Below, piece after piece: positions 12,820 to 63,238 of a stretch of 64,000 nt of DNA. Each line of letters starts with the position of its first letter. Positions within the stretch are counted from its first letter, which is position 1. Both the position numbers and the translations under genes were made by a program. Source of the DNA: an uncultured Candidatus Cloacimonadota bacterium (GTDB taxonomy: Bacteria > Cloacimonadota > Cloacimonadia > Cloacimonadales > TCS61); contig CAYWJN010000001.1 in assembly GCA_964457455.1 (NCBI GenBank), positions 5,648 through 69,647 of the forward strand, in the 5' to 3' direction. The notes beneath the pieces were generated by a model, which was not told the DNA's origin, searched no databases, and saw only the letters and a list, made by a program, of their open reading frames with translations.

Positions 12820-14667
12820 ATGAATTGTCCTGTAATACTGAAGAGAGCTTCTCCAAGATGGGTTAAGATGGTGAGGTCTGGGAAATTAGGAAGAGAGTCG
12901 CTTAAAAGACTGGCGGAAGCTGGGTATAAAGACAGGACGATAAAGCCATTAGGTAGAGGAGCTTTCAGGATCGCCGACCTCGTATTCACAGAAGGTATTG
13001 GAAAAGCTGTTAGAAAAATACCTTTAATAGACAGAAAATCTGCAAGCGATATTATAGGAATATATAAAGCTCAGGCAATGGAGCATAAGGTATGGAATAA
13101 AGCGAGGAAGTTAATGCACAAAAAGGGTATTCCTGTAGCGAAAATGGTAAAGAGAAATAAAGGGATTGGATATTATGAATACATTAAGGGGAGAAAAATT
13201 TCTGATAAAGCGGCAATAATAAAAAAAAATATGGTCCCTAATGAGTATCCAAGAGAGGGGACAGTAGCAGAAAAAATTAGATGGCAAAAAAGAATAATTT
13301 CTATAAACAAGGCAAGAGAAAAAGTTCATAAAATAATTAATGCAAATATAATAAACAAGTCGGACTATAAGAATATTAAAAAAAGGTTTCCTCATCTTAG
13401 AGATACTACCGCTCAAAACACAATAGGAAACACTTTAATAGACTTTGATATTACTAACTATAAGGCATTCCCTACAAACTTGGACATGAAACGTAACATT
13501 AAAAAAGATTCATACAGAGCAATGAGGGAGGCGTTAAATGACAGAATGCCCAATAATATTAAAATAGCAACAATGACCGGAGATATAAATAGGGCTCGAA
13601 AAGATACCAACATTAACCCATCAGATGCCCAAATAAAAGCCGAGAACTACAAAAAAGGGTCATTCAAGTGGAATGGACTGACTATTAAATTGGAGAACCC
13701 AAAGGGATCAACGAGATCCGGAACTGACCCAGATGGTAAATCGTGGTCAATAAAGATGAAATATGATTATGGATACATCTCTAATGCACAGGATGGGAAA
13801 GATGGGGACAAAATTGATGTGTTCATAGGAAGTCATCCAGAAAGTCAGATAGTGTATGTAATTGATCAAGTAGACAAGAACGGTAAATTCGATGAACACA
13901 AGTGTATCCTCGGGGCACTCACTGAAGATGAGGCTAGAAAAACATATCTCGCTAATTATGAGAAGGGATGGAAATGTGGACCGATCACGGCGATGACCGT
14001 AGAGCAATTCAAGGAATGGACTATGAAGGGTAGAACCGGAAGTCCTCTAAATAAACAAAAACTTTTTAAAGTGGGAAAAACAATGAATTGCCCCAGCATT
14101 TTACAAAAAAAGTCTTCCCTAAGGTCTATACTTAAATTAAGACCTTTACTTCGAGAAATAAAGGCGCACAAGATTCCTATAGAGAGGCATTTCATCCCAC
14201 TTAAAAAGATCAATCCCACTCTTAAGAGAATGCTCAATATAGAATATGGGGGAGTCAACTCAGATATTGGGGTAAGAGATTATATTAGATTGCTGCGTGG
14301 CGGGCAATTTCTCAAAGGTAGAGGAAATGATTTATCTATATCTATTCCTAAAGTGAAAAATGTTGCTGTCAGGAAGATCGTCTCTATGCTTCCAAGAAAA
14401 AATGAGCCGGCAGCAGTGTTGTCTCACGAACTGGGGCATGCTGTGAAGAGCAAAAAAGGATTATTGGATATTCTTAAGAAACAAACATATAACCAGAAAT
14501 ATTGGAAGAAGCCTACTGCTATGAACGAGTATTTATCAGAAGCGGAAGCAAGTGCTTTTGGATTGAAGACATTAAATAAAATGAAAGATAAGATTCCATT
14601 AAATATGCCAAAGATAAAGAAAATACTATATAAAAAGTTAAAAATTTATGGGGAGGATTTGTTGTGA
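12820..14667 (+). CDS. leader-tagged multidomain protein: kinase-like + conserved phage/plasmid domain + internal leader + HExxH metallopeptidase-like module
   Basis: Starts MNCPVILKRA. Kinase-like motifs are LGRGAFRIADLV, GKAVRKIP, HLRDTTAQN and LIDFD. The middle domain reads AENYKKGSFKWNGLTIKLENPKGSTRSG...YGYI...DGDKIDVFIG. A second leader MNCPSILQKK lies at 14083. HELGH is at 14425-14439. Confidence 0.65.
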   Translation: MNCPVILKRASPRWVKMVRSGKLGRESLKRLAEAGYKDRTIKPLGRGAFRIADLVFTEGIGKAVRKIPLIDRKSASDIIGIYKAQAMEHKVWNKARKLMHKKGIPVAKMVKRNKGIGYYEYIKGRKISDKAAIIKKNMVPNEYPREGTVAEKIRWQKRIISINKAREKVHKIINANIINKSDYKNIKKRFPHLRDTTAQNTIGNTLIDFDITNYKAFPTNLDMKRNIKKDSYRAMREALNDRMPNNIKIATMTGDINRARKDTNINPSDAQIKAENYKKGSFKWNGLTIKLENPKGSTRSGTDPDGKSWSIKMKYDYGYISNAQDGKDGDKIDVFIGSHPESQIVYVIDQVDKNGKFDEHKCILGALTEDEARKTYLANYEKGWKCGPITAMTVEQFKEWTMKGRTGSPLNKQKLFKVGKTMNCPSILQKKSSLRSILKLRPLLREIKAHKIPIERHFIPLKKINPTLKRMLNIEYGGVNSDIGVRDYIRLLRGGQFLKGRGNDLSISIPKVKNVAVRKIVSMLPRKNEPAAVLSHELGHAVKSKKGLLDILKKQTYNQKYWKKPTAMNEYLSEAEASAFGLKTLNKMKDKIPLNMPKIKKILYKKLKIYGEDLL

Positions 14668-15219: not shown

Positions 15220-16839
15220 ATGAATAAAGCAATAACTCGGAGCGATTTATACCAAGCATGGTTTAAACTTGATGGAGATGCCCTCTCTTTCAAATATTTA
15301 CCCTTTTGGATACCTATAATTAATACTTCTCGATTTACCCTTGAATCTCCTCAAGTTCAACGCCGGGTGATTCTAAAATGTTCGCGTAAAGTAGCCAAAT
15401 CAACAAATGCCGCAATTCTTGCTACCGGATTCGCGATTGAACATAAATATTTTAATACTATTATAACCTTACCTACCGATGCCCAGGTGAGTCGGTTTTC
15501 AACAGACATTCTGAAGGGGATTAACCGGGATTCTGTGGTCACGGATGTTATTTATTACGACCCTCGTTTAAACGAAAGACAAGTAAAAAACAAATCCTAC
15601 TTGACCGGCTCAAGAATACTCTTAGCTAATATTTATGTGTCGCCACTATCTGCTCGGGGAATTATCGGTGATTGCTATATTGAGGACGAGATGCAAGATA
15701 CTCCTGAACAGCACGCTAGTATTGTTGAGTTTGCGCTGAAAAGGTCTAAATATAAATATATGCTTAAGACGGGAACGCCGATGCAACCGGAGAATAGAAT
15801 CCAAACGACATTCGATGATTCAACAGGATGTGAATGGGCGATTAAATGTAGGGCATGCGGCCATTGGAATGTCGGGCTTGGCATAAAGAATATGGGTCTT
15901 AAGGGTATTATCTGCGAAAAATGTCATAAGAGAATTAGCACATGGTGGGGAGAATGGGTAGAGGCGCATCCCGGAAGACCTTTCGAGGGATTTTCAATTA
16001 ACGAGTTGATGATCCCCCCCGAAGCACCCTTTGCTTCAGATTGGGATACAATTTTATACGATTATAATAAAAAAGATGAGGTTGATTTCCATAATGAAGT
16101 TCTAGGGTTATCATTTTCAGACAATATACATCCTATAACATTGCAGAGGGTAGTATATTTATGCGATAGCGATAGGGAATACGTAAAAGATCCTTCTGAA
16201 ATTACTAAAAAAATGAAGGAGTATTCTTTTGCGGCATTGGATTGGGCTGTAGAAGATGACCCGCGGAAAAAATTGTCGAAAATAAAGTCCTATACCATGC
16301 TCACGATAGGATCATACGATCCTGGGTCGCGCAAGATTAATATAAATTTCGTCAGAAGATATTATGGAAAGGGAGAAGATGGATCTCCAGATGATATAAT
16401 TAACGATGTTGTCTATTGGGTAAACCACTTTAATGTATTGATTCTCGGAATGGATTATGGTGCTGGGCACAAAGAAAATATCCGGATAATAGAAATACTT
16501 GGTTTTAAGAGGACGATGGAATTTGAATATGTAGGAGAGTTGGCTGAGAAGGTGGCATATTATCCAGAATTCGAGAAATGGGTAATGGCGAGATCAACGG
16601 TAATGACTGGATTAATAGACGATATTGTGAGAAAAGGTGAATACAAATTTGCAAAATATCCTGGGGAGACCTCAGAATATGCAAAAGACTTGACAAACGT
16701 CTATCGATATCACGATACTGGAAAAAGAAAAATCAGATATGGGAAGTCAGGCACAGATGACTTTTTCCAGAATTTGGTTATATTGAGATTAGTGAAGAAA
16801 TACCATTTTGACGAATTAGAATATAGAGTAAAAAAATAA
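15220..16839 (+). CDS. terL: terminase large subunit
   Basis: Deviant Walker A LKCSRKVAKST and Walker B CYIEDEMQD. The C-terminal half has acidic motifs (AALDWA, LGMDYGAG). A CxxC...CxxC insertion lies at 15847-15924. Position is upstream of the portal and head genes. Confidence 0.7.
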   Translation: MNKAITRSDLYQAWFKLDGDALSFKYLPFWIPIINTSRFTLESPQVQRRVILKCSRKVAKSTNAAILATGFAIEHKYFNTIITLPTDAQVSRFSTDILKGINRDSVVTDVIYYDPRLNERQVKNKSYLTGSRILLANIYVSPLSARGIIGDCYIEDEMQDTPEQHASIVEFALKRSKYKYMLKTGTPMQPENRIQTTFDDSTGCEWAIKCRACGHWNVGLGIKNMGLKGIICEKCHKRISTWWGEWVEAHPGRPFEGFSINELMIPPEAPFASDWDTILYDYNKKDEVDFHNEVLGLSFSDNIHPITLQRVVYLCDSDREYVKDPSEITKKMKEYSFAALDWAVEDDPRKKLSKIKSYTMLTIGSYDPGSRKININFVRRYYGKGEDGSPDDIINDVVYWVNHFNVLILGMDYGAGHKENIRIIEILGFKRTMEFEYVGELAEKVAYYPEFEKWVMARSTVMTGLIDDIVRKGEYKFAKYPGETSEYAKDLTNVYRYHDTGKRKIRYGKSGTDDFFQNLVILRLVKKYHFDELEYRVKK

Positions 16840-25673: not shown

Positions 25674-27662
25674 ATGATCAAATATATTGACCTCCCATCT
25701 TACGATAAGAATGGGAACCCCACTGTCCAGCCGATTAATTTTTATGGCATGGAGAAAGTGGCTAATTACAATTACATGCCCAAAGATGCTCAGGAGTTTG
25801 TGGCGAACATAACGCCGGTAAAAAATAGGGTCTTCTTGCTGATCAGTGCGGTTGCCGATGAGTGTTGGGGAGCAAATAGTAATTCAGATTTCTTCCCAAC
25901 TATGAGTCTAAGTAATCCTACGGATGATTGGGGGTATAAAACTTACCTTAAGGCACATTATTTTCATCGCCATGAGAATAAAGACCCAGCCAAAGGGTTC
26001 GGTAGAGTGATTTTCTCCACATGGGATGAGATGATGGGCAGAGTGCTGGTAGTTGCAGAGGTGGATACCCTGAAGGATTTGGACACGAAGCAGATGCTGG
26101 ATAGTCACCAGCATATTCCGACATCGATGGGCATGAGGGTTCCTTATGATGTTTGTCGGGTATGCCATCCTAAATGGAAAGAATTCTACAAGATTCCGGA
26201 AAATGAAATGATCAAAATATCTATTTCCGGCGATATTGATGAGATAAAGGCGATTGGCAAAAAGTATGGCGTTGATTTGTCATATATTACTGAATTGAAT
26301 GACGAAGAATTCAAGGAAACTGATGATGGACAAAAGAAGAGTCTCGGAAGAGGTCCTGTTGGGATTCACTCAACATTGAACAAATATTGCGACCATATGA
26401 AGTACATGAGGGGTAGAATGGTGCCCTCAACCGGTATAGTTGTCTCTGTGGTCAATATGAGACCTAAGTTTTTCGATATAAGTAAGGTGGGAACGAATGC
26501 TGAAAAATCCAGTTATGTCCTGCAGAAGGTTGCTAGCAAAGATGACTCTGGCAGAATAACAGAAGAAGAATTAATTGAAATAGAAAAAGCCTCCGAGAAC
26601 AAGAGGGCAGAAGATAAGAAGGCAGATATTGAAAAAGAGGTAGAAGGCCAAGTATTAAGTGATGATCATATGGCGATTAACAATTATATCGGTGAAAAAA
26701 TAGTCCCGGAATTGAAAGCATCTGAAATGGATCTTCCGGTGGGAACAATAAGTGAGATTGCAAAATATCCCATTGATGATATTCTGACAACATTCTTGAG
26801 TGCGGGGGCATACCCTCGTCCACGGGAATTTCAGAGGATTATCTTAATTCAAATGGGGAAAAAAGATGATGCAGATGAATATGATAGACAGAAAATAGTT
26901 ATTCCGGATACAATAGAGGGAATTCCAACATCTGGGGAATGCTTACCAGGAATAACCTTCTCTCCAGATAAAATTAATAACAATATTTTTGATATCATAA
27001 AACCGTTTTTAATGCAAAGGTCATATTATAGACCATGCATGATCAAGAGAATCGTGATGGTAAAGAGGGCAAATGAAATTAATGCATATTTAGATCCGCC
27101 CAAAAATCATAAATCGCCCTTACCTGGAATATTAGGAACCATCGCTGCTACCTATATGTTGTCGAAAACAAAAGCAGGAAAACACCTTGTCCCGCTTGTT
27201 AAAAATATAAAAGGTAACCCAAAACTCTGGATAGCCGCCATTGTCGGCAGCGAGGTGGCTTCGCGTTTATTTAACTATTCGCGGGAAGAAATGGGTAATA
27301 ATATGGTTAAGACATCTGCTAAATATACGAATATAGCTACCTTGGTTGGGCTGCCCGTGGCATCTTATTTATATGCTGGGCATGTTTATAATAAAGCCAA
27401 ATCGGGAAGACATATCAGCGGTGTTGAAAAATTCGTGGCCAAAAATCCTGGAGGGGTTGGAATTGCTGCTGGGCTTACCGCTAATCCCCATACTCGAAAA
27501 GCAATAAAAGTAATACTTAAGGGAGTGGTAGGGAAGCATGCCGAACTTGATATGTTAATAAAAAATGGAATGGATTTTAATGGGATGGATATAACGCAAT
27601 ATCCTATAGAAGATAGAGATAGCATTATTGCATCGATGTGGAAAAATCTATATGATAAATAA
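25674..27662 (+). CDS. prohead serine protease (HK97/S78-like N-terminal domain) with long C-terminal extension
   Basis: The three blocks recalled for this family appear in order. The His block is YFHRHENKDPAKGFGRVIFSTWDEMMGRVLVVAEV. The Ser block is IPTSMGMRV. The late block is FFDISKVGTNAEKSSYV. Position is just upstream of scaffold-like and capsid genes. Confidence 0.55.
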   Translation: MIKYIDLPSYDKNGNPTVQPINFYGMEKVANYNYMPKDAQEFVANITPVKNRVFLLISAVADECWGANSNSDFFPTMSLSNPTDDWGYKTYLKAHYFHRHENKDPAKGFGRVIFSTWDEMMGRVLVVAEVDTLKDLDTKQMLDSHQHIPTSMGMRVPYDVCRVCHPKWKEFYKIPENEMIKISISGDIDEIKAIGKKYGVDLSYITELNDEEFKETDDGQKKSLGRGPVGIHSTLNKYCDHMKYMRGRMVPSTGIVVSVVNMRPKFFDISKVGTNAEKSSYVLQKVASKDDSGRITEEELIEIEKASENKRAEDKKADIEKEVEGQVLSDDHMAINNYIGEKIVPELKASEMDLPVGTISEIAKYPIDDILTTFLSAGAYPRPREFQRIILIQMGKKDDADEYDRQKIVIPDTIEGIPTSGECLPGITFSPDKINNNIFDIIKPFLMQRSYYRPCMIKRIVMVKRANEINAYLDPPKNHKSPLPGILGTIAATYMLSKTKAGKHLVPLVKNIKGNPKLWIAAIVGSEVASRLFNYSREEMGNNMVKTSAKYTNIATLVGLPVASYLYAGHVYNKAKSGRHISGVEKFVAKNPGGVGIAAGLTANPHTRKAIKVILKGVVGKHAELDMLIKNGMDFNGMDITQYPIEDRDSIIASMWKNLYDK

Positions 27663-30098: not shown

Positions 30099-31106
30099 AT
30101 GAATATAGATAATACACAATTAATAAAAGAGGCGAACGATATTCTGCAAGACCTTGCGATGAATGGTCGTGAGGCAAAAGATAATTTTATAACGAAATTC
30201 GGAACTTCTCTGGAAAATTACGTCAAGAGATATGTAAGGGAAGAGGCTTTCTCTGAGAAACTCTTGGTCAATAAAACCATGTCACCGAAGGATCCGGGTA
30301 TTCAAGAGACCGAAGATGCTGATGTATTTTACGTACTTGACAAGAAGGAAATCGGAGCAACCGCTGCCGAGGTCTCTATAAGAGGTGATACCCAACCCAT
30401 TTTCGTAGACACAAAAAAATATAAGATATGGATCGGCAAAATTGAAACAGAACGGCACAAAAAACCATGGCTGGAACTTGAAACATCTTCTGCTTCCGAT
30501 CTTGTTGATATGGTAACGAAAAATGGTGCCGAAGCAATAAGGCGAACTCAAGATTTAGGCTTTATCAAGAATGTTGCTTCCATATTGACAATTACGGGTA
30601 ATCATGTTGGTGGAGACACCACAGTATATACTGATACTATCGATTGGACAAATAGTGGTAGAAAAAAAGATCTTACGAACCTAATGTCCTATATCACACG
30701 ACAAGGACTTGTGCCTGCTAAATGGTTGATGTCTCAGACTGCATGGAATGATATGCTTGCATTTGATGCTGGTGAAGTTGGTAATCTTGCTGGAGAGACT
30801 TTTAAAAACGGTATAGCGCAGAAAGTCCTGCTGGATATTCCTGTCATTACAACCATAAAGGCAGACCTTAAAAATGATGATGAAACTATTTACTATTTTG
30901 ATAAAGAAGGTGATAGCGGCGAGCTCTATACAGATATCTATTTGTTTGTAGATCCATCTTATTTGGGTAAAAACATCAAAATTGGAAGCGATAAATCTGA
31001 TTCCAAATGGGAATGGGATGATTTCATCTGGGGTGCATGGAGATATACCGGTCACGGATTTGGCGACACTCGTGGTATCTGTAGGATGAGAATCCGAATT
31101 AAATAA
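30099..31106 (+). CDS. putative major capsid protein
   Basis: 335-aa ORF with a strong AAAGGAG SD, following the protease and scaffold-like genes and preceding a strong terminator region. The N-terminus carries LIKEA at 30120-30134. Confidence 0.55.
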   Translation: MNIDNTQLIKEANDILQDLAMNGREAKDNFITKFGTSLENYVKRYVREEAFSEKLLVNKTMSPKDPGIQETEDADVFYVLDKKEIGATAAEVSIRGDTQPIFVDTKKYKIWIGKIETERHKKPWLELETSSASDLVDMVTKNGAEAIRRTQDLGFIKNVASILTITGNHVGGDTTVYTDTIDWTNSGRKKDLTNLMSYITRQGLVPAKWLMSQTAWNDMLAFDAGEVGNLAGETFKNGIAQKVLLDIPVITTIKADLKNDDETIYYFDKEGDSGELYTDIYLFVDPSYLGKNIKIGSDKSDSKWEWDDFIWGAWRYTGHGFGDTRGICRMRIRIK

Positions 31107-31119
31107 TTGGGAATAGAGA

Positions 31120-31713
31120 ATGTTTCGCATACTCAATATAACGCGTAAAAATCCGCATATTAAGTCCTATGAGAATGTAACAATAATGGACGGGGAACAT
31201 AAACTTGTTGTCCGTCCTAAAAAGGTTACTGTTATTAGTGATGAGGTTCATGAACATTACAAGGGAATGATGACCGATACCACGGATAAAAGTGAATGGA
31301 CCGTCGACACCAAATTCTATGCTGTCAAAATCATATCTGTCTCGGGATTAACTATTTCGAACGATGAGGAAGAGACAATAGAAGATAAGGTTGAAGAAGG
31401 CTCAAAGAAACCGGATGAACCTGAACTCAAAGGGAGCGAAGAAGGTGAAGGGATTACTAATAAGGCTGAAGATGGTGATATTTCCGAGAAAAAAGAATTA
31501 ATATTGAAACAGGAAGAGGTAGCCAAAAAAGAAATAAAGGGCGATGAAATCACCAATAAAAAGGAAGGGCCAAAACCGTTGAACCGTGCCAAGATCATGG
31601 AAAATTTGGATGCTTATAATGAAACTCGTGATACTGATGAAAAAGTTACTTATCGCAAAAAGGACACCCTTGACACTCTGCAAAAACTTTGGGGTGGCCT
31701 GAATAAAGAATAA
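31120..31713 (+). CDS. acidic head-associated protein
   Basis: 197-aa ORF whose C-terminal two thirds are E/K/D-rich. Contains the 30-nt exact repeat at 31336-31365. Confidence 0.55.
   Translation: MFRILNITRKNPHIKSYENVTIMDGEHKLVVRPKKVTVISDEVHEHYKGMMTDTTDKSEWTVDTKFYAVKIISVSGLTISNDEEETIEDKVEEGSKKPDEPELKGSEEGEGITNKAEDGDISEKKELILKQEEVAKKEIKGDEITNKKEGPKPLNRAKIMENLDAYNETRDTDEKVTYRKKDTLDTLQKLWGGLNKE
31336..31365 (+). repeat. 30-nt exact direct repeat, copy 1 (partner 48879-48908)
   Basis: TCTGTCTCGGGATTAACTATTTCGAACGAT is identical at both sites. Both copies are codon-aligned and encode SVSGLTISND. Confidence 0.9.
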
Positions 31714-33538: not shown

Positions 33539-35581
33539 ATGAGTAGAAATGGTGTATTTACAAACATACTATATCAAATACAAGGGAGTAGCCTGGTCGC
33601 GCCCACGAGAGGGGCCGTTGTTGTTGGTGTCCCATTGAGGGTATCGAAAAAAACTTATCATGGACCGATATTGGTAGGCGATCTGACTATTGACGCTACA
33701 GAAGACAATAAAATGAAATTAAATGATGCTGAGAAAATGCAGGCAAACGGTGACATGAAATTGTTCATCAGAAAAGCTGGCGAAGAGGATCCTGCTGCTA
33801 TTCAAATGTCAACAGCATATTATTTCAACACAAACCCCACTATCAGTAAAACAAATTATAATAATGATGGCATTGCGACCATAACGTTCCTCTCAACTGA
33901 TTTCTTGCGACAGATTGGCAAAAACTATGGTGGCGCTAATTTAACCTATACTATGGATGCTGGGGGTGAAATAGTTACGGTTGGAGGCTCAAACGCAACA
34001 AAATTTATGTCGCTATTAGAGGTTGGGCAATGTTTTTATCATGGAGACGATGATAAGTATTACGAGATATTGTCTATTGATGTGGGCAATAGCCAGTTTA
34101 CTCTTGTTGAGGTTGTAACAGGGGCATTGGCTGCCAGTGTGGATGATAGCATATGGTATGATTATCTTGGGTCTAACATGAATACCCCGAAAGTCAGACG
34201 TCCTGTTCTCCTTTATGATATTATAGTTCAGAAAACAGACATTAGCGGACTTTATACCATTACATCGGTTGGTGATCTCGTGGATAAGTTTGGATCGGAG
34301 AGTCTAGAAGACCCAGACAGCAATCTGGCTTTTGGTGCGTTTTTACATTTGGCCGCTAATGGTGGAGTCAATCAATTTAGGATTTATGCTATTCCTGTTG
34401 ATGGGACCGACGCATTATCAACGATATTGGCTGCTAATACAAGTTGGGTTGCTGCCCAAGAGTCAATTAATGGGGTATCAACCGCATTCTTTATAGTTCC
34501 CCTAACAGACAATGAAACGGTTTTGAGCGGATTTAAAACCTGGGCAGAGACACAGTCCGGAACAGACTATAAACGTGAGAAACAGGTATTTATTTCGGAA
34601 AAAGTAGTAAACGGGGGCAACGGACTTACCTATGGAGAAGATGGAGATGAATTTACTATCTCTGAAATTGCGGCGGCATCAGATGGATCAAAAACAGTGG
34701 TTACAATAGGGGCTGGCGAGGCCGCAGACATTAAAGCCGGAATGGTATTTTCTGCAACTTATGGCGGAATAACCGTTGAGTCTGATGTTATTGCTGTTGA
34801 TACTTCGAATGACACATTTACTGTCAATAAAGATTATGGTAGTACCTTTGGAGACCTTTCTGCGGAAGTATTATCCTGGCCACAGGATAGTCTATTCTGT
34901 GATAGTGGATATACTCCTCAAACTGATGCAGATACAGCGGTTACTGTTCCAAATGGCTATGATAGTCAGCGAGTAGTATTATGTGGTCCATATTATGCAA
35001 TGATGGGAGACACAAAACTATTTGGTTATCATATTGCTGTGATAGTGGCCGGTTATGTCTCTTCAAAAATATTGGGTTATGTATTCACTAATGATGCACT
35101 TCCTTTGATTACTTGGCTACCTACCATTAATTATTTCACAATAAATCAACTTGAGGCAATTAAAGACTCTGGGTGGTTTATGTTACACCAGGAAATGGAA
35201 GGGGCACCTATTGGTATTTATCATCAGAAAACAACCGCTCAGGCTATTCTTGAAAAAAAAGAGTTATCAATAGTAATCGTGACTGTCAGCGTTGCTCAGG
35301 CTATTAGATCAACCCTTAGACCACATGTGGCAAAAGGGGTAGATAATAGCATCTCCCACGAAGCAACTAATTCGGCTAAAAATAGGAGATATATCAAAAA
35401 ATTGAATAACGATCTAGCTACTATCAGATATAAGTTTGTTAATGAAATAGAATGTTTGGCTGACTTTAAAGTAATTGGAGTTGCTGCAAATGTGGTAAAT
35501 AGAGATCAAGTCGATAACAAGGTTGAAATAAAGCATTATTATCCAGTCAACAGAATAAACAATTATATTTATATAGTGTGA
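33539..35581 (+). CDS. tail sheath protein
   Basis: 680-aa ORF directly upstream of the tube, chaperone-frameshift and tape-measure genes, which is the classical contractile-tail order. Confidence 0.6.
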   Translation: MSRNGVFTNILYQIQGSSLVAPTRGAVVVGVPLRVSKKTYHGPILVGDLTIDATEDNKMKLNDAEKMQANGDMKLFIRKAGEEDPAAIQMSTAYYFNTNPTISKTNYNNDGIATITFLSTDFLRQIGKNYGGANLTYTMDAGGEIVTVGGSNATKFMSLLEVGQCFYHGDDDKYYEILSIDVGNSQFTLVEVVTGALAASVDDSIWYDYLGSNMNTPKVRRPVLLYDIIVQKTDISGLYTITSVGDLVDKFGSESLEDPDSNLAFGAFLHLAANGGVNQFRIYAIPVDGTDALSTILAANTSWVAAQESINGVSTAFFIVPLTDNETVLSGFKTWAETQSGTDYKREKQVFISEKVVNGGNGLTYGEDGDEFTISEIAAASDGSKTVVTIGAGEAADIKAGMVFSATYGGITVESDVIAVDTSNDTFTVNKDYGSTFGDLSAEVLSWPQDSLFCDSGYTPQTDADTAVTVPNGYDSQRVVLCGPYYAMMGDTKLFGYHIAVIVAGYVSSKILGYVFTNDALPLITWLPTINYFTINQLEAIKDSGWFMLHQEMEGAPIGIYHQKTTAQAILEKKELSIVIVTVSVAQAIRSTLRPHVAKGVDNSISHEATNSAKNRRYIKKLNNDLATIRYKFVNEIECLADFKVIGVAANVVNRDQVDNKVEIKHYYPVNRINNYIYIV

Positions 35582-37364: not shown

Positions 37365-37582
37365 AAATAAATCGAAATAGTCCAGCGTTTTATCTGCTAA
37401 AACACTTTTATGAGAAAGAGGCCTTAGCAGATATAGTTCGTGCCAGATTACCATATCTGGAAGATAGGCAAAAGGCTATAGAATTATTATCCTCGCTTAT
37501 TTACCCACCATTGGAAACAATAAAGAAAAATGAAATCAATAATTTAATGCACAAAATGAATTATTTTCTTGGAGATGAATAG
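37340..37582 (+). CDS. C-terminal extension of the frameshifted chaperone (GT-like), or an independent 80-aa ORF
   Basis: In the -1 frame relative to 36825-37310, with no intervening stop from 37304 onward. Confidence 0.55.
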   Translation: MLSISPGVQINRNSPAFYLLKHFYEKEALADIVRARLPYLEDRQKAIELLSSLIYPPLETIKKNEINNLMHKMNYFLGDE

Positions 37583-40179
37583 TGGCAAATATGGACGATG
37601 TTGTAAAAGAGTTAAGAACTGGCTTCGGATTACTGTCTAAAGATATACAGTTGTTAATTCGTTCCGGCGGAGAAGCCATGAGAATGGGGGCAACATCAGC
37701 TACTAAAATTCATGGCACCATGAGAGAAGCGATGAATATAGCTTCCGAATCACCAAGATCATTTATGCAGGAAACCTTTAGCAAACAGTTTAATCGACCA
37801 GCATTATGGTCACGAGATATTGTGGCTCTCTCTGGAGTTCAGCCAGAATATATGGATATGACACGGCGAGAAGCCGAATACTACGCAGCAAAGCATTGGG
37901 GACAAAGAGGTCAGTATCTGGCAGCAACGGGGGCCGAAATAGCCGCATGGTCAATGGGAATTGTCCCCGGGGCAATTTATTCATTTGGGGTGCGCCCTTT
38001 GATAGATAAATATATAGGCAGAAAGCATGATTGGTGGAATTTTCTTGATAGATCCGGCAAGAATAATATTCTAGCTGGACAGAGTTCAAACCGGATTACT
38101 TATACTGGGTGGGATGACTCTCAATTAACGGAATTGTCCAGATTTATGACCACATCACACCGCGGGTATGGGTTTAAACGAGATGAAGCCGATAATATCT
38201 TTAAAATGGCTGACCAGCAAGGATATTTTAAAAAGACAGGAGATGTCGAAACATTTAAGCGATCTTACAGAGAATTATTGGAGGGCGTTAAAGAAATTAT
38301 GCAGACAATGCATACTTCTTATACAGAAGCAACTCAGGTAATGTCCGATATTAGTTCAATGCAAATATCCAATCCCGCAGGGTACATCAAGGGACTTAAT
38401 GTAGCATCAGCATACTCAGGATTATCTGCACAACAATTAACCTCATGGAGCAAGGACACCGCGAGGAGAATATATTCCACTTACGGTATACCCATGTCTA
38501 CCGGAGGTGAATTGGCATTAAATATTGTTCAAGACAAGGACACTTCTGGATTAAAAAGTTGGGGATTGAATGAAATTATGTCAAATCCTATATATTTTGC
38601 TGCATTATCAGACTATAAGGACGGGGAATTAACTTTAAACGAGGAGGTCTTAAATAAGTTTTTAACTGGTCAGATAGGAGTAGGAGGACTATCTGAAAGA
38701 GCGGCAGAATATTTCCGGGGAGGCAATATTATGGATAAATATATTGCTCTACAGACAGGAATGCCCGGATTGTTAGAACAAATTGGACCCAACCGGTCTG
38801 GGGAAATTATGTCATCGCTGGCGTTGACCAAAGCGCGGATGATAGTTGACCAAATGTATCCAGATGATAGTAAAGAAAGAACTAATGCAATGCGCTTTAC
38901 TCTTGAGAATATGGGATTAAATCAGGGGCAGATCAATGCTTCAATGAAATTATATAAAGGAGAATACGATAAAAATCTTGCATTAGAACTAAAAAAGTAT
39001 AGAAAAGGGGAAAAGACTGTATGGGAAGAGTTAGACGATGTAATATTCACCCCCATAAGTAATCTTATTGAGGACGTGACAAGACCCCAAAATGAATTGT
39101 TCTCAATATTAGCAAGTGACCCAAGCAGAGCAGAACAAATGTATATTGAATTAAGGGAAAAATACGGGATAGAAAAGCCACCAAAATATCTAACATATGG
39201 AGGCGTGGGGGGTCATATGCCTTATGCGAGCATGCTGTTTGCAGCGATTCAATCTGGAGAGTATGAAGGATTAGCTGATGAGGTTATGGATAGGGTTGGT
39301 TTTGGCGATAAAGATTTCTGGCGAGCAAATAAAAAAACTATTATGCAATTGTATAAACAGGGGTATGTTCGAGATAAGGGAAACTGGTTTTCTCCATGGA
39401 GAACAAAAAAAGAAGTAACCAGGCAAGCAAAAATTCTGGAAAGATTTTCAGAGGGGATGATATCAGGGAAATATGATGACATGGGAGGAATCCTAAAAAG
39501 TAAGGATGCAGAAGCTTTATTGGGTGCGATAGGGGAGGCAAGACGCAAGGGTGAAGACGTAGATGTAGCAATGTTGTTTGGAAAATTAGGGTATTTGGAA
39601 CAAGAAGATATAACCGATGAGGATATGGCGACATTCTTGAGATCCGTCCACATGTATGCTGACATAAAGGGCGTCCATGTTGATACATCTTTCATAGGTT
39701 TGATGGGACAGTCTCCTGGTGGACTCTATGGAAAATGGGCAGGAGACTTAGAATATTTATCAAGGAGAGGTAGTAGTCGAACCAGAGAACTGTTGTCAAC
39801 ATCAGAAGGACAAAGGTTATTTACCGAAATAGCTGTTGACCTAAAAACAAAAAGCTTTCCATGGGATGAGATAAGAGCGGATGTTCATAAAGAATTTATA
39901 AAACTAACTGATAAGAGTGTTTCTCCCGGGGCACTAGATCCTCTATTTGATGATGTTAATAGTTTGTTGGTCTCACACCATGGGTCTATTACAGGCGCTC
40001 AAGCATTTTTGGACAAAAAAGACCTTGATCAAAAAGATAGAATGACAGAGGTTTCTGGAATTTACAAAGGGCAATGGGGGGATGTTATAACATTGTTCAA
40101 TAATTTATTGATAGCGGCCGAACAACATAAAACGGCGACCAGAGAAATATTAGCCGAAGTCAGAGCATGGAAGGGATAA
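37582..40179 (+). CDS. tail tape measure protein
   Basis: 865-aa ORF after the chaperone pair. GTG start overlaps the TAG stop. The sequence is helical and Gly/Ala-rich. Confidence 0.6.
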   Translation: MANMDDVVKELRTGFGLLSKDIQLLIRSGGEAMRMGATSATKIHGTMREAMNIASESPRSFMQETFSKQFNRPALWSRDIVALSGVQPEYMDMTRREAEYYAAKHWGQRGQYLAATGAEIAAWSMGIVPGAIYSFGVRPLIDKYIGRKHDWWNFLDRSGKNNILAGQSSNRITYTGWDDSQLTELSRFMTTSHRGYGFKRDEADNIFKMADQQGYFKKTGDVETFKRSYRELLEGVKEIMQTMHTSYTEATQVMSDISSMQISNPAGYIKGLNVASAYSGLSAQQLTSWSKDTARRIYSTYGIPMSTGGELALNIVQDKDTSGLKSWGLNEIMSNPIYFAALSDYKDGELTLNEEVLNKFLTGQIGVGGLSERAAEYFRGGNIMDKYIALQTGMPGLLEQIGPNRSGEIMSSLALTKARMIVDQMYPDDSKERTNAMRFTLENMGLNQGQINASMKLYKGEYDKNLALELKKYRKGEKTVWEELDDVIFTPISNLIEDVTRPQNELFSILASDPSRAEQMYIELREKYGIEKPPKYLTYGGVGGHMPYASMLFAAIQSGEYEGLADEVMDRVGFGDKDFWRANKKTIMQLYKQGYVRDKGNWFSPWRTKKEVTRQAKILERFSEGMISGKYDDMGGILKSKDAEALLGAIGEARRKGEDVDVAMLFGKLGYLEQEDITDEDMATFLRSVHMYADIKGVHVDTSFIGLMGQSPGGLYGKWAGDLEYLSRRGSSRTRELLSTSEGQRLFTEIAVDLKTKSFPWDEIRADVHKEFIKLTDKSVSPGALDPLFDDVNSLLVSHHGSITGAQAFLDKKDLDQKDRMTEVSGIYKGQWGDVITLFNNLLIAAEQHKTATREILAEVRAWKG

Positions 40180-40182
40180 ATA

Positions 40183-41118
40183 ATGGAAATATTATTCACT
40201 GATGGAGAGACAAGAAATTATCCGCGGGCAGTAATATCGGTGGGTAGATCAAATTCATCTGATTTTATATTAACATCGGTAACCCAGAAAAGATCTGAAC
40301 AAATTGCGGTCAATCATCATTATGATGATTATAAAATAGGCATTAAAAATAAGATCATAGAGCCATATAAATTTAGTGGGATTGTGATTGACACAAAAAA
40401 TACTACATGGGAGACGCAATTTATTGAGAATTATAAAAACCTCTGGAGAGCCAGCGTATGTTTGGGGTCTCAGGATAAGTCTGCACAAAGGAAGGATACA
40501 TATGTATCAGTCGTATATAAAGGCATTCAGATAAATGGTTATATGGTTGATATGTCTATCATGTCAAACAATACAGGTTTATCTTATTTTTCGTTTACTC
40601 TGATTCCCTTGGGGAATCCGGTGGAGAACTTGGCTGGCGAAATAGATTATATTGATAAGGCTGATATATCTAATGTTCAAAGAGAGGATAATAAGGCATC
40701 TATATTTATGAGTAATAAGCCCATAGAAGAACAACCAATGAGAGAGTTCTCTCTACAATCGATCAATAAATACTTCTTGGAAAAATATCAATTCACAGGT
40801 GTATATGGGGGGATTACTAGTTTTGGGAGTTATCCCGATACCTATATTTTTGGTTTAATATTACCGGATACAAAAGAGAGCGTAATAGTAGAAGGTGTTG
40901 AATATTCATGGAAGCACCTATTTAATAAATATTATCGCGAAAAATGGAGTGTAAAGAATTTATATAGGGATCAGAAAGTGCATATTGTATATAAAAACAG
41001 GGTGGCCACGGGTTATATTATGAGTTTAACGGATAATGTGAAGGCCGGGGAAACATTCTCAAGAGTAGAACTACGAATGTTGGTAAAAAGTGATTATGCT
41101 GACATGGGGGGGCATTAA
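40183..41118 (+). CDS. distal tail or baseplate protein
   Basis: Position is after the tape measure gene. Contains the 26-nt exact repeat at 40463-40488. Confidence 0.5.
   Translation: MEILFTDGETRNYPRAVISVGRSNSSDFILTSVTQKRSEQIAVNHHYDDYKIGIKNKIIEPYKFSGIVIDTKNTTWETQFIENYKNLWRASVCLGSQDKSAQRKDTYVSVVYKGIQINGYMVDMSIMSNNTGLSYFSFTLIPLGNPVENLAGEIDYIDKADISNVQREDNKASIFMSNKPIEEQPMREFSLQSINKYFLEKYQFTGVYGGITSFGSYPDTYIFGLILPDTKESVIVEGVEYSWKHLFNKYYREKWSVKNLYRDQKVHIVYKNRVATGYIMSLTDNVKAGETFSRVELRMLVKSDYADMGGH
40463..40488 (+). repeat. 26-nt exact direct repeat, copy 1 (partner 62943-62968)
   Basis: TGGGGTCTCAGGATAAGTCTGCACAA is identical at both sites and in the same codon phase. Both copies encode GSQDKSAQ. 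Confidence 0.9.
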
Positions 41119-43058
41119 TGAGAGGTGTTGATCTGAATACCGTTTGCTACTTGGAGGGAATAAAGGTCCCAATGATGAAAATAAGTATATCCATGCATGA
41201 GAATAATCTGTGTGTAGCCACAATTACCTTGCCCCAAGTGGGGAAACTGTCGGAGATCAAGGACGGTACAATCATAACGGTATTCTATTACGATTGTGAT
41301 TCAGAGGTCTACCGATTATTATTTGACGGTGTAACCACGGGTGTTACCTATAATAGGCAAAGAGACCTTAGGACGAGATCTATATTAGCCGTTGGACAGA
41401 ATAAATATCTGAACGATCTGCCATCTCAATATTTATCCGCTCTTGAGTTCGAGAATTTTTTTCAATTAGTTGGTTCATATGAATTTTATGGTATGGATGA
41501 TGCAAATATGGGGACAACCGTGATAAACAACGCTATAAAAAATGCTTTTCAGATATTTAATCTCGGAGATCCTGTTAAACTTAATGTTGTTGATTATTTT
41601 GATAAAGTTTTATCCCTATTAAAGGATTCGTGGGAATATTATTATAAAAATATCAACAAGAGACTGAAAATTAGTCGCGATCATGTTTATGTTGATGAAG
41701 ATTTGTTTAAAGAATTTTATAGGGCGGAGGGGTTGACCAACTTTCTGGAATCTACCAATATGGATGTCATATTGAACAATGAAACACCATTGGATGGTAT
41801 TTTGAGAAAACTAATGCATGTGGGATACCGCTATATCAACATTGGTTGTCCCGCCTATAATGATAAGGGAGTGGAGAAAATACTGTCTGGGCTAAAAATC
41901 CAAACAAATGATAAATCGATGGCTAAATATGTATTGCTGCCCGATATATTAAATGTCGCTCCTCCCAAATGTAATGTCTTTATTGCCGGTGATGATGTAG
42001 AATTGTTAAATGACAATATCCGGAGCACCCCCATAACGCGACTACGCCATGTCTATAAAATATTCGATAATAATCTTTTCAGTCGAGAATCGCCCGGGGA
42101 TTTAAAGGAAAATAAGTATAATCTGACAGATGAAGAATATGAATTTGGGATACGGGGAGCAATTGAGATAAAGAGTTATCTGTTTAATAGAATAATTGGA
42201 GAAGACATTCTAAAACCTGAAGAAATTGCTGAACAACAAAGCAATATTGTTTGGCAAAACCTCTGTGATTATGAATTTATGAAAAAACGATATTCACAGA
42301 ACATCCTGCAATGTTCATTTCCAGAATTACACCCCTATGGAGTAGTGGGATTTCCGAGCATTGTCTATGATGTACCACAGGATGCTGTTTATTATGGAAT
42401 ATTATCCAGCGTAAATATAATGATAGATCAGTCTGCGGGAAAAACCGGGACACAAATTGAGATGACTAATGTCAGAAAAATAACCAGTCTGACAGATATC
42501 GGTTTGATCAATCCATTTCTGGAGAGGGAAGTATTTACAAATATTAATAAGATATACGATTATTGCTACAATCCTATTCTTACTGGTTCTAAAGGGGTTG
42601 CAGCCAAAGTAGTTGAAAGCGAATATTCTCCCGGTATTTTGGGAATGATAGGTTATATTCCCATAACAGAACATTCGAATGATCTAAAACTACTAAAAAG
42701 GAGAAAACGCGAAAAAAGAACTGGCTCCGAGGTAGTAAACAGCGTTAATGCTATAAAAACAAATCATCAAGATTTATTTAAAAAAGATGGGTATTGTAAA
42801 CGAGAAATCATTACATTTGGAGAATATTTGTATTCAAGAGGACTGATAACACGAGATAATACCCCTAAGAGTATATATGAATTGAAATATAAGAAAATTA
42901 TACCCGATATGGCATCAGAAGTTACAGATCAAGTGAAAACGTTAGAAGAGCATGGAACAACTGTCGTGCCAGATGGGACGGTATTTATAACGGAGAGGCG
43001 AGATAAAATCCTGGAATTACTAGAAGAATATGGAGACGATATATTGCCAAGGAGATAA
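41118..43058 (+). CDS. baseplate hub-like protein (positional)
   Basis: 646-aa ORF with an ATGA-type overlap with the previous gene. Confidence 0.45.
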   Translation: MRGVDLNTVCYLEGIKVPMMKISISMHENNLCVATITLPQVGKLSEIKDGTIITVFYYDCDSEVYRLLFDGVTTGVTYNRQRDLRTRSILAVGQNKYLNDLPSQYLSALEFENFFQLVGSYEFYGMDDANMGTTVINNAIKNAFQIFNLGDPVKLNVVDYFDKVLSLLKDSWEYYYKNINKRLKISRDHVYVDEDLFKEFYRAEGLTNFLESTNMDVILNNETPLDGILRKLMHVGYRYINIGCPAYNDKGVEKILSGLKIQTNDKSMAKYVLLPDILNVAPPKCNVFIAGDDVELLNDNIRSTPITRLRHVYKIFDNNLFSRESPGDLKENKYNLTDEEYEFGIRGAIEIKSYLFNRIIGEDILKPEEIAEQQSNIVWQNLCDYEFMKKRYSQNILQCSFPELHPYGVVGFPSIVYDVPQDAVYYGILSSVNIMIDQSAGKTGTQIEMTNVRKITSLTDIGLINPFLEREVFTNINKIYDYCYNPILTGSKGVAAKVVESEYSPGILGMIGYIPITEHSNDLKLLKRRKREKRTGSEVVNSVNAIKTNHQDLFKKDGYCKREIITFGEYLYSRGLITRDNTPKSIYELKYKKIIPDMASEVTDQVKTLEEHGTTVVPDGTVFITERRDKILELLEEYGDDILPRR

Positions 43059-43059
43059 T

Positions 43060-43701
43060 ATGGAATATAATGATGTCCTAAAGAAATATCAACCTTTAAT
43101 TAATTCAACTGTCAATAGATTTTCTGGGAGCACAATACCTAAAAACCTGTTAAGATTGCAGGCGGAAATATTAGTCGGAGAAGCTCTCAATACTTTTGAT
43201 CCCCAAAAAGGTCCATTGGCTAACCATGTGAGCAATTATATGAAATCGATGAATAGGTTTGTGAATGAAGCGAGTCCTATATATATTCCTGAAGAAAGAT
43301 CGCAGAAATTTGGCAAATTCACATCCGAGGTGGCTACCTTTGAGGAGAAGGTCGGACGAAAGCCAACCTACGAGGAAATGGCTGACAGATTAAAGATGGG
43401 TATTGGCGACATAAAAAGATTATCAGAGGAAACTGGCAGAAAATTAACATCAGATATCTCTTTTGCAGACAATATCACAATGGCTTTTGATCCCACATTC
43501 AATGAAAAAAACTTCTTGGATATGGTTTATAATAAACTTGAGAATTCTGACGAAAAGAAAATATTGGCACTAACTTATGGGATACACGGATATCCAAGAT
43601 TGTCAACTAATGAGCAGATTGCTCAACGGGTAGGGGTGTCAGAATCTACAATAAGGCGGAAAAAAGATAACATTATTACAGTAATGAGGAAATTGAAATA
43701 A
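43060..43701 (+). CDS. sigma-70 family (group 4-like) sigma factor
   Basis: Track ORF is 43030-43701. ATG 43060 follows AAGGAG. The region 2-like block reads YQPLINSTVNRF...LLRLQAEILVGEALNTFDP. The C-terminal HTH reads NEQIAQRVGVSESTIRRKKDNIITVMRKL. Confidence 0.65.
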   Translation: MEYNDVLKKYQPLINSTVNRFSGSTIPKNLLRLQAEILVGEALNTFDPQKGPLANHVSNYMKSMNRFVNEASPIYIPEERSQKFGKFTSEVATFEEKVGRKPTYEEMADRLKMGIGDIKRLSEETGRKLTSDISFADNITMAFDPTFNEKNFLDMVYNKLENSDEKKILALTYGIHGYPRLSTNEQIAQRVGVSESTIRRKKDNIITVMRKLK

Positions 43702-47771: not shown

Positions 47772-49718
47772 ATGGCACAATTCGTAGAAGATGTGGTAAA
47801 TCAGAGTTTACCAGTATCCCCAACGGGGGATACTCCGTCTGCTGTTAATCCAACTACCAATATCGCTCTCCGTTTTGATGTTTCAAAGTTCTTGGAAGAA
47901 TATAGCAGCGGAGATGATATTCCTGTTGAAACTTATAACCCAATATGTCAGAAAAAGTTGAGTTCAGAATTGCAGAAAAATATTGAGATAACGGGGAAGT
48001 TTAGAACCGATTATGATCCTGTTGAAAGCGGGAGCCATGGCGGATATAGTTATATTACTGTGAGAAAACCATCTTCCGGGAAGGCAGATGCCATTAGCGG
48101 ATACGGAATAGTATGGAGACCTTCATCCTACGATGCAGAAAGTCTTGAATTAACGGGAACAGTCTCTGGAACAACAATAACACTAAATCCTGGGGACGGA
48201 GTACACCTGGGTACCAACACAGTAGCATTTATATCTAATGTTATTGGGAATAAAATCTATTATGTTCCGTTTGAGTTTACCCGAGACACAGATATTTTGA
48301 CAGATTGTGTGTTTCCGGAAAATATCACACCATCAGGAGAAGTAACCATACTCGTTTGTGAACCCAATATCTTCATTGTTGATAATGATCTGGTGAATGC
48401 TGATATGTATGTCAATAAAGTGATGGAATTCCCCGGTAATACATTAGCATACATAGTGTCTGGAATAACCAAGATTGAAAAAAATACTGATTATTATTTC
48501 AAAATGCAAATAAGCGAAGATAATGCGATCGATTTCTATTTGGAAGAAACAGAAGAAGCCCTTGAGGAAGCAACGGCAAAAATAAGTTGTGGGGCGAGAA
48601 CTCCCTTATCAGAATATCTTGCCACCTCTAATATGGATGCCTTCGGAATATCAACGGTTGATACGGCTGGGTATAAATGGTATTATGATAACATTCAGAT
48701 AAGAAGATTGGCGGGAGAATATGCTGTCAACTATTTTGAATTCGATATCAGCACCTTGGCGGACATGATCCAACTCTACATCAAAGGATATGGTTCCGGA
48801 TATGGGGGAGATGGATTAAAAATGTATGTATGGGATCCATCTCAAGAAGTATGGGAACAAATAGCAGAAAATACATTTTCTGTCTCGGGATTAACTATTT
48901 CGAACGATATTGATACAGAGTATTATGCGACAGATAATACTATTAAAATAAAAGTACAAACATCCTATCCCTCGGGATTAACAACAGAGGCGGCAATTTC
49001 TCTGGATTATATAGATGTTCGGAGTTCATACAATAGTGGGGTCAATATAGGTGGATGTGTGGACGTTTATATTGATGATGAATATCTCAAAAGCGATACG
49101 GTGGATGTGGAACCGGATTTATCTGACTACATTAACGTGATAGATTTTAGCAATAGAGTGCCAGTATGGATTGATAAAATAATTATCAAAGATAGTAGTC
49201 CAGAGATTGAATTGACGGAGGGGATTGACTATATATGGGAACACAATGACAATAATTATGAAAGATCTGTACGGGGACAGAGTATTATAAAATTTAATCC
49301 CGCAATCTCAAGTGAGGTGAGAATAACTTATTATTATAGTTCCCTGGTTAAAAATGTGCAAAATTGGGTCAATGAGCCACATATTCATTATAAGGGGCAG
49401 GATATTTTGGTCAGGCATAAAAATATTCATCTATTGTCCATTGTTGCTACAACTGGCGATAACACTATTTTGTCCACCATAAAAGGCCATATTGAGGATT
49501 ATGTTAATACCTTAACATCAAAGGATGGGGAGGTATCCCTAACATATGAAGGAATTAAAGAATATTTATATCTACAGGGGGTAAGAGAACTATCCTATTT
49601 GGTCGTTACCGATAATTATAGGGAAAACGGCGTGAAGACAAAAGAAATTATCAATGTTCCCGGAGATGTAATAACTATTAATAAAACGGCTATATTTAGA
49701 TTAGAAGGTAGAATATAA
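47772..49718 (+). CDS. baseplate or tail fibre-associated protein
   Basis: 648-aa ORF after the J-like gene. Contains copy 2 of the 30-nt repeat. Confidence 0.5.
   Translation: MAQFVEDVVNQSLPVSPTGDTPSAVNPTTNIALRFDVSKFLEEYSSGDDIPVETYNPICQKKLSSELQKNIEITGKFRTDYDPVESGSHGGYSYITVRKPSSGKADAISGYGIVWRPSSYDAESLELTGTVSGTTITLNPGDGVHLGTNTVAFISNVIGNKIYYVPFEFTRDTDILTDCVFPENITPSGEVTILVCEPNIFIVDNDLVNADMYVNKVMEFPGNTLAYIVSGITKIEKNTDYYFKMQISEDNAIDFYLEETEEALEEATAKISCGARTPLSEYLATSNMDAFGISTVDTAGYKWYYDNIQIRRLAGEYAVNYFEFDISTLADMIQLYIKGYGSGYGGDGLKMYVWDPSQEVWEQIAENTFSVSGLTISNDIDTEYYATDNTIKIKVQTSYPSGLTTEAAISLDYIDVRSSYNSGVNIGGCVDVYIDDEYLKSDTVDVEPDLSDYINVIDFSNRVPVWIDKIIIKDSSPEIELTEGIDYIWEHNDNNYERSVRGQSIIKFNPAISSEVRITYYYSSLVKNVQNWVNEPHIHYKGQDILVRHKNIHLLSIVATTGDNTILSTIKGHIEDYVNTLTSKDGEVSLTYEGIKEYLYLQGVRELSYLVVTDNYRENGVKTKEIINVPGDVITINKTAIFRLEGRI
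48879..48908 (+). repeat. 30-nt exact direct repeat, copy 2
   Basis: Identical to 31336-31365. Confidence 0.9.
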
Positions 49719-62836: not shown

Positions 62837-63238
62837 ATGAACCAGGATGAACGAAGGTTAATATTATTAGAGTGTTTAAAAAAAACGAAAACGGAACTTG
62901 ATACTGACAAAAAAGAGATTATGGGTTTATTAATGAAGATAATGGGGTCTCAGGATAAGTCTGCACAATGGAGGATAGATACAGGAAAGATCGTTGATAG
63001 TAATCTTTTGCGGATTGGGACAATAGAAAAAGAATATGTGCCACGGGACAAAATCGAAAGTATGATAAGCAAATTCAAAGAACCTCTAAGCGAGGATAAA
63101 ATAGAAACAATGATAAATGATAAATTTGACCAGAAAGATAAATCAGAAAGCAGGAAAGAATATAATACAATAGCCAAAATAGCGATTATTATATCAGCAT
63201 TAACTTTCGTGGTAATGATTATAACTCTTATATTATGA
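62837..63238 (+). CDS. tail-anchored membrane protein
   Basis: C-terminal TM segment IAKIAIIISALTFVVMIITLIL. Contains copy 2 of the 26-nt repeat. Confidence 0.55.
   Translation: MNQDERRLILLECLKKTKTELDTDKKEIMGLLMKIMGSQDKSAQWRIDTGKIVDSNLLRIGTIEKEYVPRDKIESMISKFKEPLSEDKIETMINDKFDQKDKSESRKEYNTIAKIAIIISALTFVVMIITLIL
62943..62968 (+). repeat. 26-nt exact direct repeat, copy 2
   Basis: Identical to 40463-40488. Confidence 0.9.

Follow-up and report, generated by a model that had tools for sequence, protein, structure and literature searches.

The DNA analysed here is a 64,000-nucleotide (nt) stretch deposited under an uncultured Candidatus Cloacimonadota bacterium (GenBank assembly GCA_964457455.1, contig CAYWJN010000001.1, positions 5,648 to 69,647), hereafter called the window. 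It comes from an uncultured contractile-tailed phage, for which no close relatives were found in the phage GenBank collection or in IMG/VR. Our subject is a 30-nt sequence, TCTGTCTCGGGATTAACTATTTCGAACGAT, which is present in the window in two exact copies, at 31336-31365 and 48879-48908, both on the plus strand and each inside a gene. One of the two genes stands next to the major capsid gene, and the other belongs to a block of large baseplate/fibre genes that follows the putative tape-measure gene. The features on which the argument rests are the following; positions are those of the window, and positions prefixed with L, used further below, are those of our numbered loci.

15220-16839: large terminase gene.
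30099-31106: major capsid protein gene (phrog_2522).
31120..31713, plus strand: recipient gene directly after the major capsid gene, coding for a protein of 197 amino acids (aa) in which a conserved N-terminal domain of ~70 aa and a short C-terminal part flank a variable acidic linker.
31336..31365, plus strand: the 30-nt copy read here as derived (recipient), coding for residues 73-82 of the post-capsid protein, where the conserved N-terminal domain passes into the acidic low-complexity linker.
33539-35581: tail sheath gene.
37582-40179: putative tape-measure gene, 865 aa, named from size and position, without a family match.
47772..49718, plus strand: donor gene, 648 aa, in the baseplate/fibre block after the sheath gene, with a weak precomputed match to PF27237 (AF_1625_C).
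48879..48908, plus strand: the 30-nt copy read here as native (template), residues 370-379 of the 648-aa protein.

The labels 'head-associated' and 'baseplate', which the two genes had received in a first-pass annotation made from the letters alone, are reasonable but position-based. Pfam and PHROGs scans found no family for the 197-aa post-capsid protein, and a single-sequence model of it was uninformative, with a predicted local distance difference test score (pLDDT) of 40.

Repeat scan and translation agreed with the first-pass annotation on the pair itself, which had been described as ten in-frame codons with unrelated flanks. Both copies start on a codon boundary and read SVSGLTISND, one in the open reading frame (ORF) 31120-31713 (197 aa) and one in ORF 47772-49718 (648 aa). 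When the two proteins were compared by BLASTP, the repeat peptide was the sole alignment, and the flanking DNA was dissimilar up to the edges of the repeat (anchored extension: left P=0.13, right none). An exact repeat of 30 nt is far beyond chance: the longest exact repeat measured 16-20 nt in 30 third-order Markov simulations of the window and 16 nt in phage lambda. A third copy with up to three mismatches was absent from the window (0 expected from 100 shuffles), as were degenerate copies with up to ten mismatches on either of its strands.

The window sequence was also recovered from three ENA assemblies (ERZ23498668, ERZ23498658 and ERZ23498639) and two JGI assemblies (3300013119 and 3300009008), in contigs that were 100% identical to the window or differed by 1 mismatch in 20.5 kb. 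Both copies of the 30-nt repeat, and both copies of a second, 26-nt repeat described below, were present in them. Because the same sequence stands in the assemblies of several samples, an assembly artefact is unlikely; all assemblies of this phage represent one clone, and some possibly stem from the same reads.

The two copies of the 30-mer have different histories. A protein search with the 648-aa baseplate protein (P0001-P0008) returned the sequence itself, unchanged, and seven full-length homologs, of which five are orthologs at 55-65% identity and two stand at 36%; synteny of the gene region is conserved in the relatives. All five closer orthologs are gapless at the repeat and carry a homologous peptide, S[TS]xxL-[STM]IS[NKD][DN], in different codons. 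The window's FSVSGL-TISNDID aligns with FSTASL-SISNDVD, YSSLAL-TISKNID, FSSSKL-MISDDIE and FSSSDI-MISDDII, and the nearest ortholog writes its peptide as TCG ACA GCC TCT TTA TCA ATA TCA AAC GAC where the window has TCT GTC TCG GGA TTA ACT ATT TCG AAC GAT. On both sides of the baseplate copy, the DNA is collinear with that of the nearest ortholog. An AlphaFold model built from this alignment folds residues 320-420 into a beta-sandwich (pLDDT ~78-86) with a strand at residues 373-376, within the peptide. Fold searches with the 648-aa model returned galectin, CBM6 and MAM-like (lectin/CBM-like) sandwiches, together with weak local matches to phi812 baseplate chains (Foldseek E ~0.004-0.012). With a homologous but differently coded peptide, no insertion or deletion and a position inside a predicted beta-sandwich, the baseplate copy is, judging from alignment and model, ordinary ancestral coding sequence and therefore the template of the pair.

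Orthologs of the post-capsid protein were obtained from the capsid neighbourhoods of relatives, which were reached through capsid homologs. Four syntenic orthologs from three lineages were available:

L008:10990-11529, in the relative termed rel1 (ENA NODE_1094 phage).
L011:11013-11564, in the first of two strains of rel2 (JGI ML8-type phage).
L012:11013-11534, in the second strain of rel2.
L027:1248-1877, in the third lineage.

These proteins share the N-terminal domain of ~70 residues, behind which stands a low-complexity linker that is variable and either charged or proline-rich. All four are without the segment and are 4-7 residues shorter exactly at the border of domain and linker, as the alignment at this point illustrates:

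Window: ...DTKFYAVKIISVSGLTISNDEEETIEDK
L008: ...DTKLYV------SNVEKTGDETPEKEK
L011/L012: ...DIKFMVV-------KKDLDITTPLKKK
L027: ...DTVFMLI----SAPEKKVKKPKPKRK

A further phage, L028, lacks the post-capsid gene altogether. The ancient protein motif, which the first-pass annotation had named as the alternative to an insertion signature, was thus found in one gene of the pair only: the baseplate orthologs have the homologous peptide with divergent codons, whereas the post-capsid orthologs do not have it. The linker also varies within the rel2 lineage, where it consists of tandem 15-nt units coding for APVEE repeats (L011:11265-11420 and L012:11265-11390). The number of these units differs between the two strains, whose proteins measure 184 and 174 aa, which marks the linker as a hotspot of length change.

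Since the baseplate orthologs have a homologous peptide at this place and those of the post-capsid protein have none, the tract was copied from the baseplate gene to the post-capsid gene. On the evidence of these alignments, the copy at 31.3 kb is a derived addition. It is also recent. The 30 nt show no difference between the copies, an outcome with P=0.04 at 0.1 substitutions per site, so that the divergence of the two lies below ~0.1 substitutions per site; the 26 nt of the second pair, described below, are likewise free of differences, which limits their age in the same manner. The DNA of the nearest relative is ~33-36% diverged from the window. Identity, direction of transfer, derived state and recency of the 30-nt copy are thus shown.

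The window holds a second exact pair of this kind, and a third was found in a relative:

40463..40502, plus strand: derived 26-nt copy, an insertion of eight codons (GSQDKSAQ, 40465-40488) in a 311-aa protein whose gene follows the putative tape-measure gene (865 aa).
62943..62981, plus strand: the other 26-nt copy, in a 133-aa ORF (62837-63238); presumed template.
L001:1594-1622 (plus strand) and L001:18693-18721 (minus strand): 29-nt pair of rel1, also seen at L002:174, L003:1594, L004:1594 and L008:19633.

As the first-pass annotation had claimed, the 26-nt pair (40463-40488 and 62943-62968) is exact and is read in frame as GSQDKSAQ in both ORFs, and the two pairs interleave along the genome in the order 31.3, 40.5, 48.9 and 62.9 kb. 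The 311-aa protein reads ASVCLGSQDKSAQRKDTYV in the window, where its two orthologs read ASQCM--------RENTYI and ASLCM--------RNHLMV, a clean gap of eight residues. In the DNA of the orthologs, TGT ATG is directly followed by AGG or CGG, and the window has TGT TTG, then 24 nt, then AGG. The two copies share 2 nt on the left of the inserted codons, and on the right, across a 3-nt gap, imperfect similarity continues to ~40 nt (AGGAAGGATACA vs TGG-AGGATAGATACA; anchored score 7, P ~0.01; blastn 40 nt at 92.5%). The 133-aa ORF has no orthologs in our library, in which a phmmer search returned the ORF itself and two chance matches to repeat proteins; the copy at 62.9 kb is presumed to be the template. 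Directly before this ORF lies a gene for a PAS-domain protein (62076-62819; PAS_9, E=1e-7), an unusual cargo for a phage. With four post-capsid orthologs that are without the 30-nt segment and a clean insertion of eight codons at 40.5 kb, the in-frame insertion or gene-conversion tract that the first-pass annotation had listed among its readings has held up.

In rel1, the nearest relative (65% protein identity), a scan of 40 kb revealed a 29-nt exact inverted repeat, CTGGGCCAACTATTTCTCTGCCCACGATA, with one copy in the putative tape-measure gene and the other in a fibre-like gene of 792 aa. Translation runs through the two copies in frame, and the one in the putative tape-measure gene was seen in four separate assemblies. 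Either copy may be the template of this pair, as the region in the putative tape-measure gene is variable and the C-terminus of the fibre-like protein is without an ortholog. The three events thus measure 30 nt, 26 nt (30 nt if one mismatch is allowed) and 29 nt. A 21-nt repeat at 10851 and 13003 was considered as a third pair of the window and set aside, since it lies between paralogs of 39% identity and is different in kind. These paralogs (10605-11672 and 12820-14667) align over ~320 aa, and the longer of them (12820-14667) combines an InPase domain (PF18823, an inorganic pyrophosphatase; E=1e-50) with a weak Peptidase_M91-like region.

We think that the 30-nt copy probably arose by sporadic templated insertion, through polymerase template switching or break repair, and that it is a neutral scar, kept because it is in frame at a tolerant site. 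In three respects, the pattern is that of a templated insertion: the inserted tract is identical to one elsewhere in the genome (30/30; 26/26 for the second pair), the recipient copy is absent from the orthologs, and the baseplate template is native and unaltered. As for the enzymology, we infer that, while the phage DNA pool replicates or repairs a break, a growing 3' end would leave its own template, prime briefly at an ectopic site, copy ~30 nt and return; in a less likely variant, a short fragment of the genome would be captured at the break. The product would survive by virtue of a whole number of codons, the lack of a stop codon and a tolerant linker, and would have no function of its own. 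The tolerant positions would be the border of domain and linker for the 30-nt copy and a hydrophilic stretch between conserved blocks for the 26-nt pair. The same type of event would have made the 26-nt pair, and a separate one the inverted 29-nt pair of rel1.

Several observations weigh against sporadic templated insertion. The 30-nt patch has sharp edges without visible microhomology, and the linker varies too much among relatives for its ancestral sequence to be reconstructed. Two other relatives (31 kb and 22 kb, 53 kb in all) contain no distant exact repeats of 17 nt or longer, so the process would be rare, and older, decayed copies are likewise missing, as a self-blastn of 78 kb stayed at the level of simulations apart from paralog families. 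The range of 26-30 nt is narrower than random template switching predicts, at n=3 and with events below ~20 nt undetectable. Both window events keep the strand and the frame of the donor, for which the chance is ~1 in 12 (3/6 and 4/6 frames open). No allele without the insertion exists among the assemblies, all of which are clonal, and every contig with the capsid gene has the same neighbour gene. Finally, ~81 kb around the window could be read, and the longest contig with these genes measures 134.6 kb.

Of the other explanations, we regard it as unlikely that the repeats are functional, that is, a DNA or RNA site for a phage factor or a peptide module that both proteins need, with identity kept by selection or conversion. 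Such a role would fit the donor frame and strand shared by both window pairs, the presence of GTCTCNGGAT in both pairs and nowhere else in the region read, and the multisubunit RNA polymerase encoded by the phage, given that the long exact repeats of T7 are polymerase promoters. The first-pass annotation had also pointed to a similar core in the two repeats and had raised the idea of a common recognition element. The core strings GTCTCGGGATTAA and GTCTCAGGATAA are present in the repeats, but their similarity is insignificant: local alignment of the 30-mer and 26-mer cores (GTCTCGGGAT vs GTCTCAGGAT) scored 8, with P ~0.07 against random window pairs. Moreover, the core begins at codon position 1 in one repeat and at position 3 in the other. 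Within ~78 kb, GTCTCNGGAT is confined to the four repeat sites, neither extra exact copies of the repeats nor further core matches were found in ~81 kb of the phage genome, and the core is absent from ~180 kb of the relatives' loci. With this P value, differing codon phases and absence from relatives, the shared recognition core was discarded.

Two related ideas fared no better. A 9-nt string, AACTATTTC, shared with the 29-mer of rel1, reached P ~0.03 and was unconvincing after multiple looks. GTCTC and GGTCTC are type IIS restriction sites, but GTCTC is undepleted, being counted 28 and 61 times where 25 and 55 were expected. The protein or RNA binding site of the first-pass annotation found no backing either: the fold z-scores of the window repeats, alone or in context, were no better than those of shuffles, and the window contains neither Rfam families nor tRNAs. 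T7, run for contrast, has long exact repeats that are its terminal repeat and multi-copy, mostly intergenic polymerase promoters, whereas each repeat here has two copies, all of them in-frame coding tracts. Relatives are without the segment in the recipient genes and without the core, so any function would be new and lineage-specific, and selection on the peptide would not require identical codons.

A dedicated process in this phage lineage that moves ~30-nt coding units between structural genes, the in-frame grafts being selected, strikes us as improbable. Spacer-sized oligonucleotides from a nuclease/integrase, or the products of a primer-synthesising enzyme, could for example be inserted into phage genes. 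Three independent events of tight size (30, 26 and 29 nt) and a 30-nt patch with sharp edges and without microhomology are what such a mover might leave. Its enzyme is not to be seen: reverse transcriptase, integrase, invertase, transposase and Cas1 domains were absent from Pfam/PHROGs scans and precomputed Pfam lists over ~81 kb, in which small ORFs at 12.6-21.2 kb were unscanned. An external source is not apparent either, as JGI metagenome contigs and GTDB genomes gave no source or spacer match for either repeat, nor did IMG/VR for the 30-mer. No terminal repeats, palindromic structure or target duplication were found at the repeats. The second pair's net insertion is 24 nt, with partial homology beyond it, and no events occur in the two other relatives; with three events known, detection stops below ~20 nt. 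Because of the size clustering, the sharp edges, the kept frame and the ~40% of the genome that is unread, a small probability for a dedicated process remains. If true, it would amount to natural micro-exon shuffling, by integration of spacer-sized oligonucleotides or relocation of primers, with the 30-, 26- and 29-nt pairs as its products. The short mobile in-frame insertion suggested by the first-pass annotation can accordingly be kept in part: one copy is a derived in-frame insertion, but nothing marks it as a mobile element, as there are two copies per sequence, no degenerate copies and no terminal repeats or target duplication, and one of the copies belongs natively to its gene.

Still less probable is a role of the direct repeats as programmed crossover sites (att-like, shufflon or invertase) that excise or rearrange segments of 17.5 kb and 22.5 kb. 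The direct-repeat pairs do interleave, and 26-30 base pairs (bp) is a typical length for the core site of a recombinase. However, excision would take out the sheath, putative tape-measure and baseplate genes, no recombinase gene was found in the region scanned, and one copy is ordinary conserved coding sequence; in addition, relatives with the same gene order are without the repeats, and all assemblies show one arrangement. An artefact of assembly or sequencing that placed the same k-mer twice is hardly credible: the contigs are from short-read metagenomes, all phage copies are identical and reads are possibly common to some assemblies, but the same sequence comes from at least five samples and two pipelines, the ORFs are intact and in frame with whole codons inserted in both pairs, and the relative's 29-nt copy stands in four separate assemblies.

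Sporadic templated insertion has parallels outside phages. In break-induced replication mediated by microhomology (MMBIR), templated insertions at microhomology have been documented (PMC8421209). The likeness lies in a short insertion identical to a distant site, an unchanged template, the use of either strand, sporadic occurrence and the lack of a dedicated element. MMBIR-type events differ in their setting in eukaryotic nuclear genomes, usually with nearby templates and visible microhomology, whereas here the genome is that of a phage, the templates lie 17.5-22.5 kb away, the 30-nt patch is without visible microhomology, and all that is seen of the events is in-frame survivors that have become fixed in structural genes. 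A second parallel is offered by SARS-CoV-2, in which inserts of 9-24 nt match distant parts of the genome exactly and have been attributed to template switching; six of them match the coding strand and one the complementary strand (PMC8632935). Exact matches elsewhere in the viral genome and in-frame positions in structural genes are common to both cases. In SARS-CoV-2, an RNA virus, the process is copy-choice by the RNA-dependent RNA polymerase linked to the synthesis of subgenomic RNA. Since the present phage is a tailed phage with double-stranded DNA, another polymerase must be at work, and in another setting (replication fork or break repair).

Systems known from phages and bacteria are less alike. 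Diversity-generating retroelements share the one-way transfer from template to target inside a phage structural gene, but they need a reverse transcriptase, homologous template and variable repeats (TR/VR) of ~60-200 nt and adenine-specific differences. Here, no reverse transcriptase was found, the tract has 30 nt at 100% identity, and the recipient is without homology to the donor. Rickettsia palindromic elements are in-frame, translated, multi-copy palindromic families of ~100-150 bp, of which every copy is an insertion; the repeats described here have two copies each, are not palindromic, and include one copy that is native gene sequence. The capsid-targeting leaders of T4 internal proteins and the His boxes of T-even fibres are short in-frame motifs common to unrelated virion proteins, and are old, multi-copy and present in orthologs. 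The two copies of the 30-mer are exact, and orthologs of the recipient do not have it.

A shared motif of the latter sort does exist in this phage. A leader, MxCPxI[IV]K(E)A, starts at least eight ORFs, some at internal in-frame positions, with sites at 10605, 12820, 14083, 14664, 14954, 23763, 24125 and 24649, and also at 11706, 24431, 25142 and 25282. Its codons differ, the leader DNA being 72-89% identical with the ribosome-binding region included, and a 44-nt leader match (93%) lies after the baseplate gene of a relative (L001:11938-11981). The MxCPxI[IV]K leader may serve as a shared N-terminal signal for targeting or cleavage, presumably comparable to the capsid-targeting leaders of T4 internal proteins.

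Other features of the genome deserve mention. The subunits of a multisubunit RNA polymerase are encoded by split beta and beta-prime genes on the minus strand (L015:11266-19625), ~1.1-9.5 kb past the right end of the window, with an ORF for a LAGLIDADG_3 homing endonuclease (358 aa) between the beta-prime pieces. Amid the baseplate block, at 43030-43701, lies a gene for a 223-aa protein with matches to sigma-70 region 4 (E=2e-7) and region 3, whose position is kept in all relatives. A short-chain dehydrogenase gene at 1756-2640 (adh_short, E=8e-20) is further unusual phage cargo. The ML8-type relatives, but not the window, carry a 102-aa ORF with a Cas12f1-like_TNB (TnpB zinc-ribbon) Pfam match (L011:7297-7605), located between the head genes and a 660-aa gene that is the counterpart of 25674-27662 in the window. 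Lastly, a circular genome of 78.3 kb, suggested by a 92-nt identity of contig ends, was rejected, as the identity is a repeat and ENA scaffolds continue beyond it with different sequence. This repeat, at least 94 nt long and with two hairpin-forming stretches, occurs in two copies ~78.3 kb apart and so mimics circularity. Its sites lie ~5.2 kb upstream of the window (L019:1-92; L020:3062-3155) and ~9.1 kb downstream of it (L015:20311-20402), and it coincides with the ends of a 78,445-bp JGI contig, past which other scaffolds run.

Together, these data provide a clean, direction-resolved case in which a tailed phage grafts a short piece of one structural gene into another, with template and recipient both identified and the state before the insertion visible in relatives. 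Eukaryotic genomes and SARS-CoV-2 provide well-described ectopic micro-insertions, but the literature searched contained no description of them in phages. The case adds one more example to a known type of mutational event, and its interest is modest. The recurring size of ~30 nt is the one oddity; should a large survey bear it out, a specific enzyme would be indicated. Such insertions also leave direct repeats of 26-30 bp, and repeats of this length could, given the minimal homology needed for recombination, seed lethal deletions. A short exact repeat common to unrelated phage genes is not necessarily a regulatory site or a mobile element, and ectopic micro-insertions could plausibly supply virion proteins, on a small scale, with new loops and linkers.

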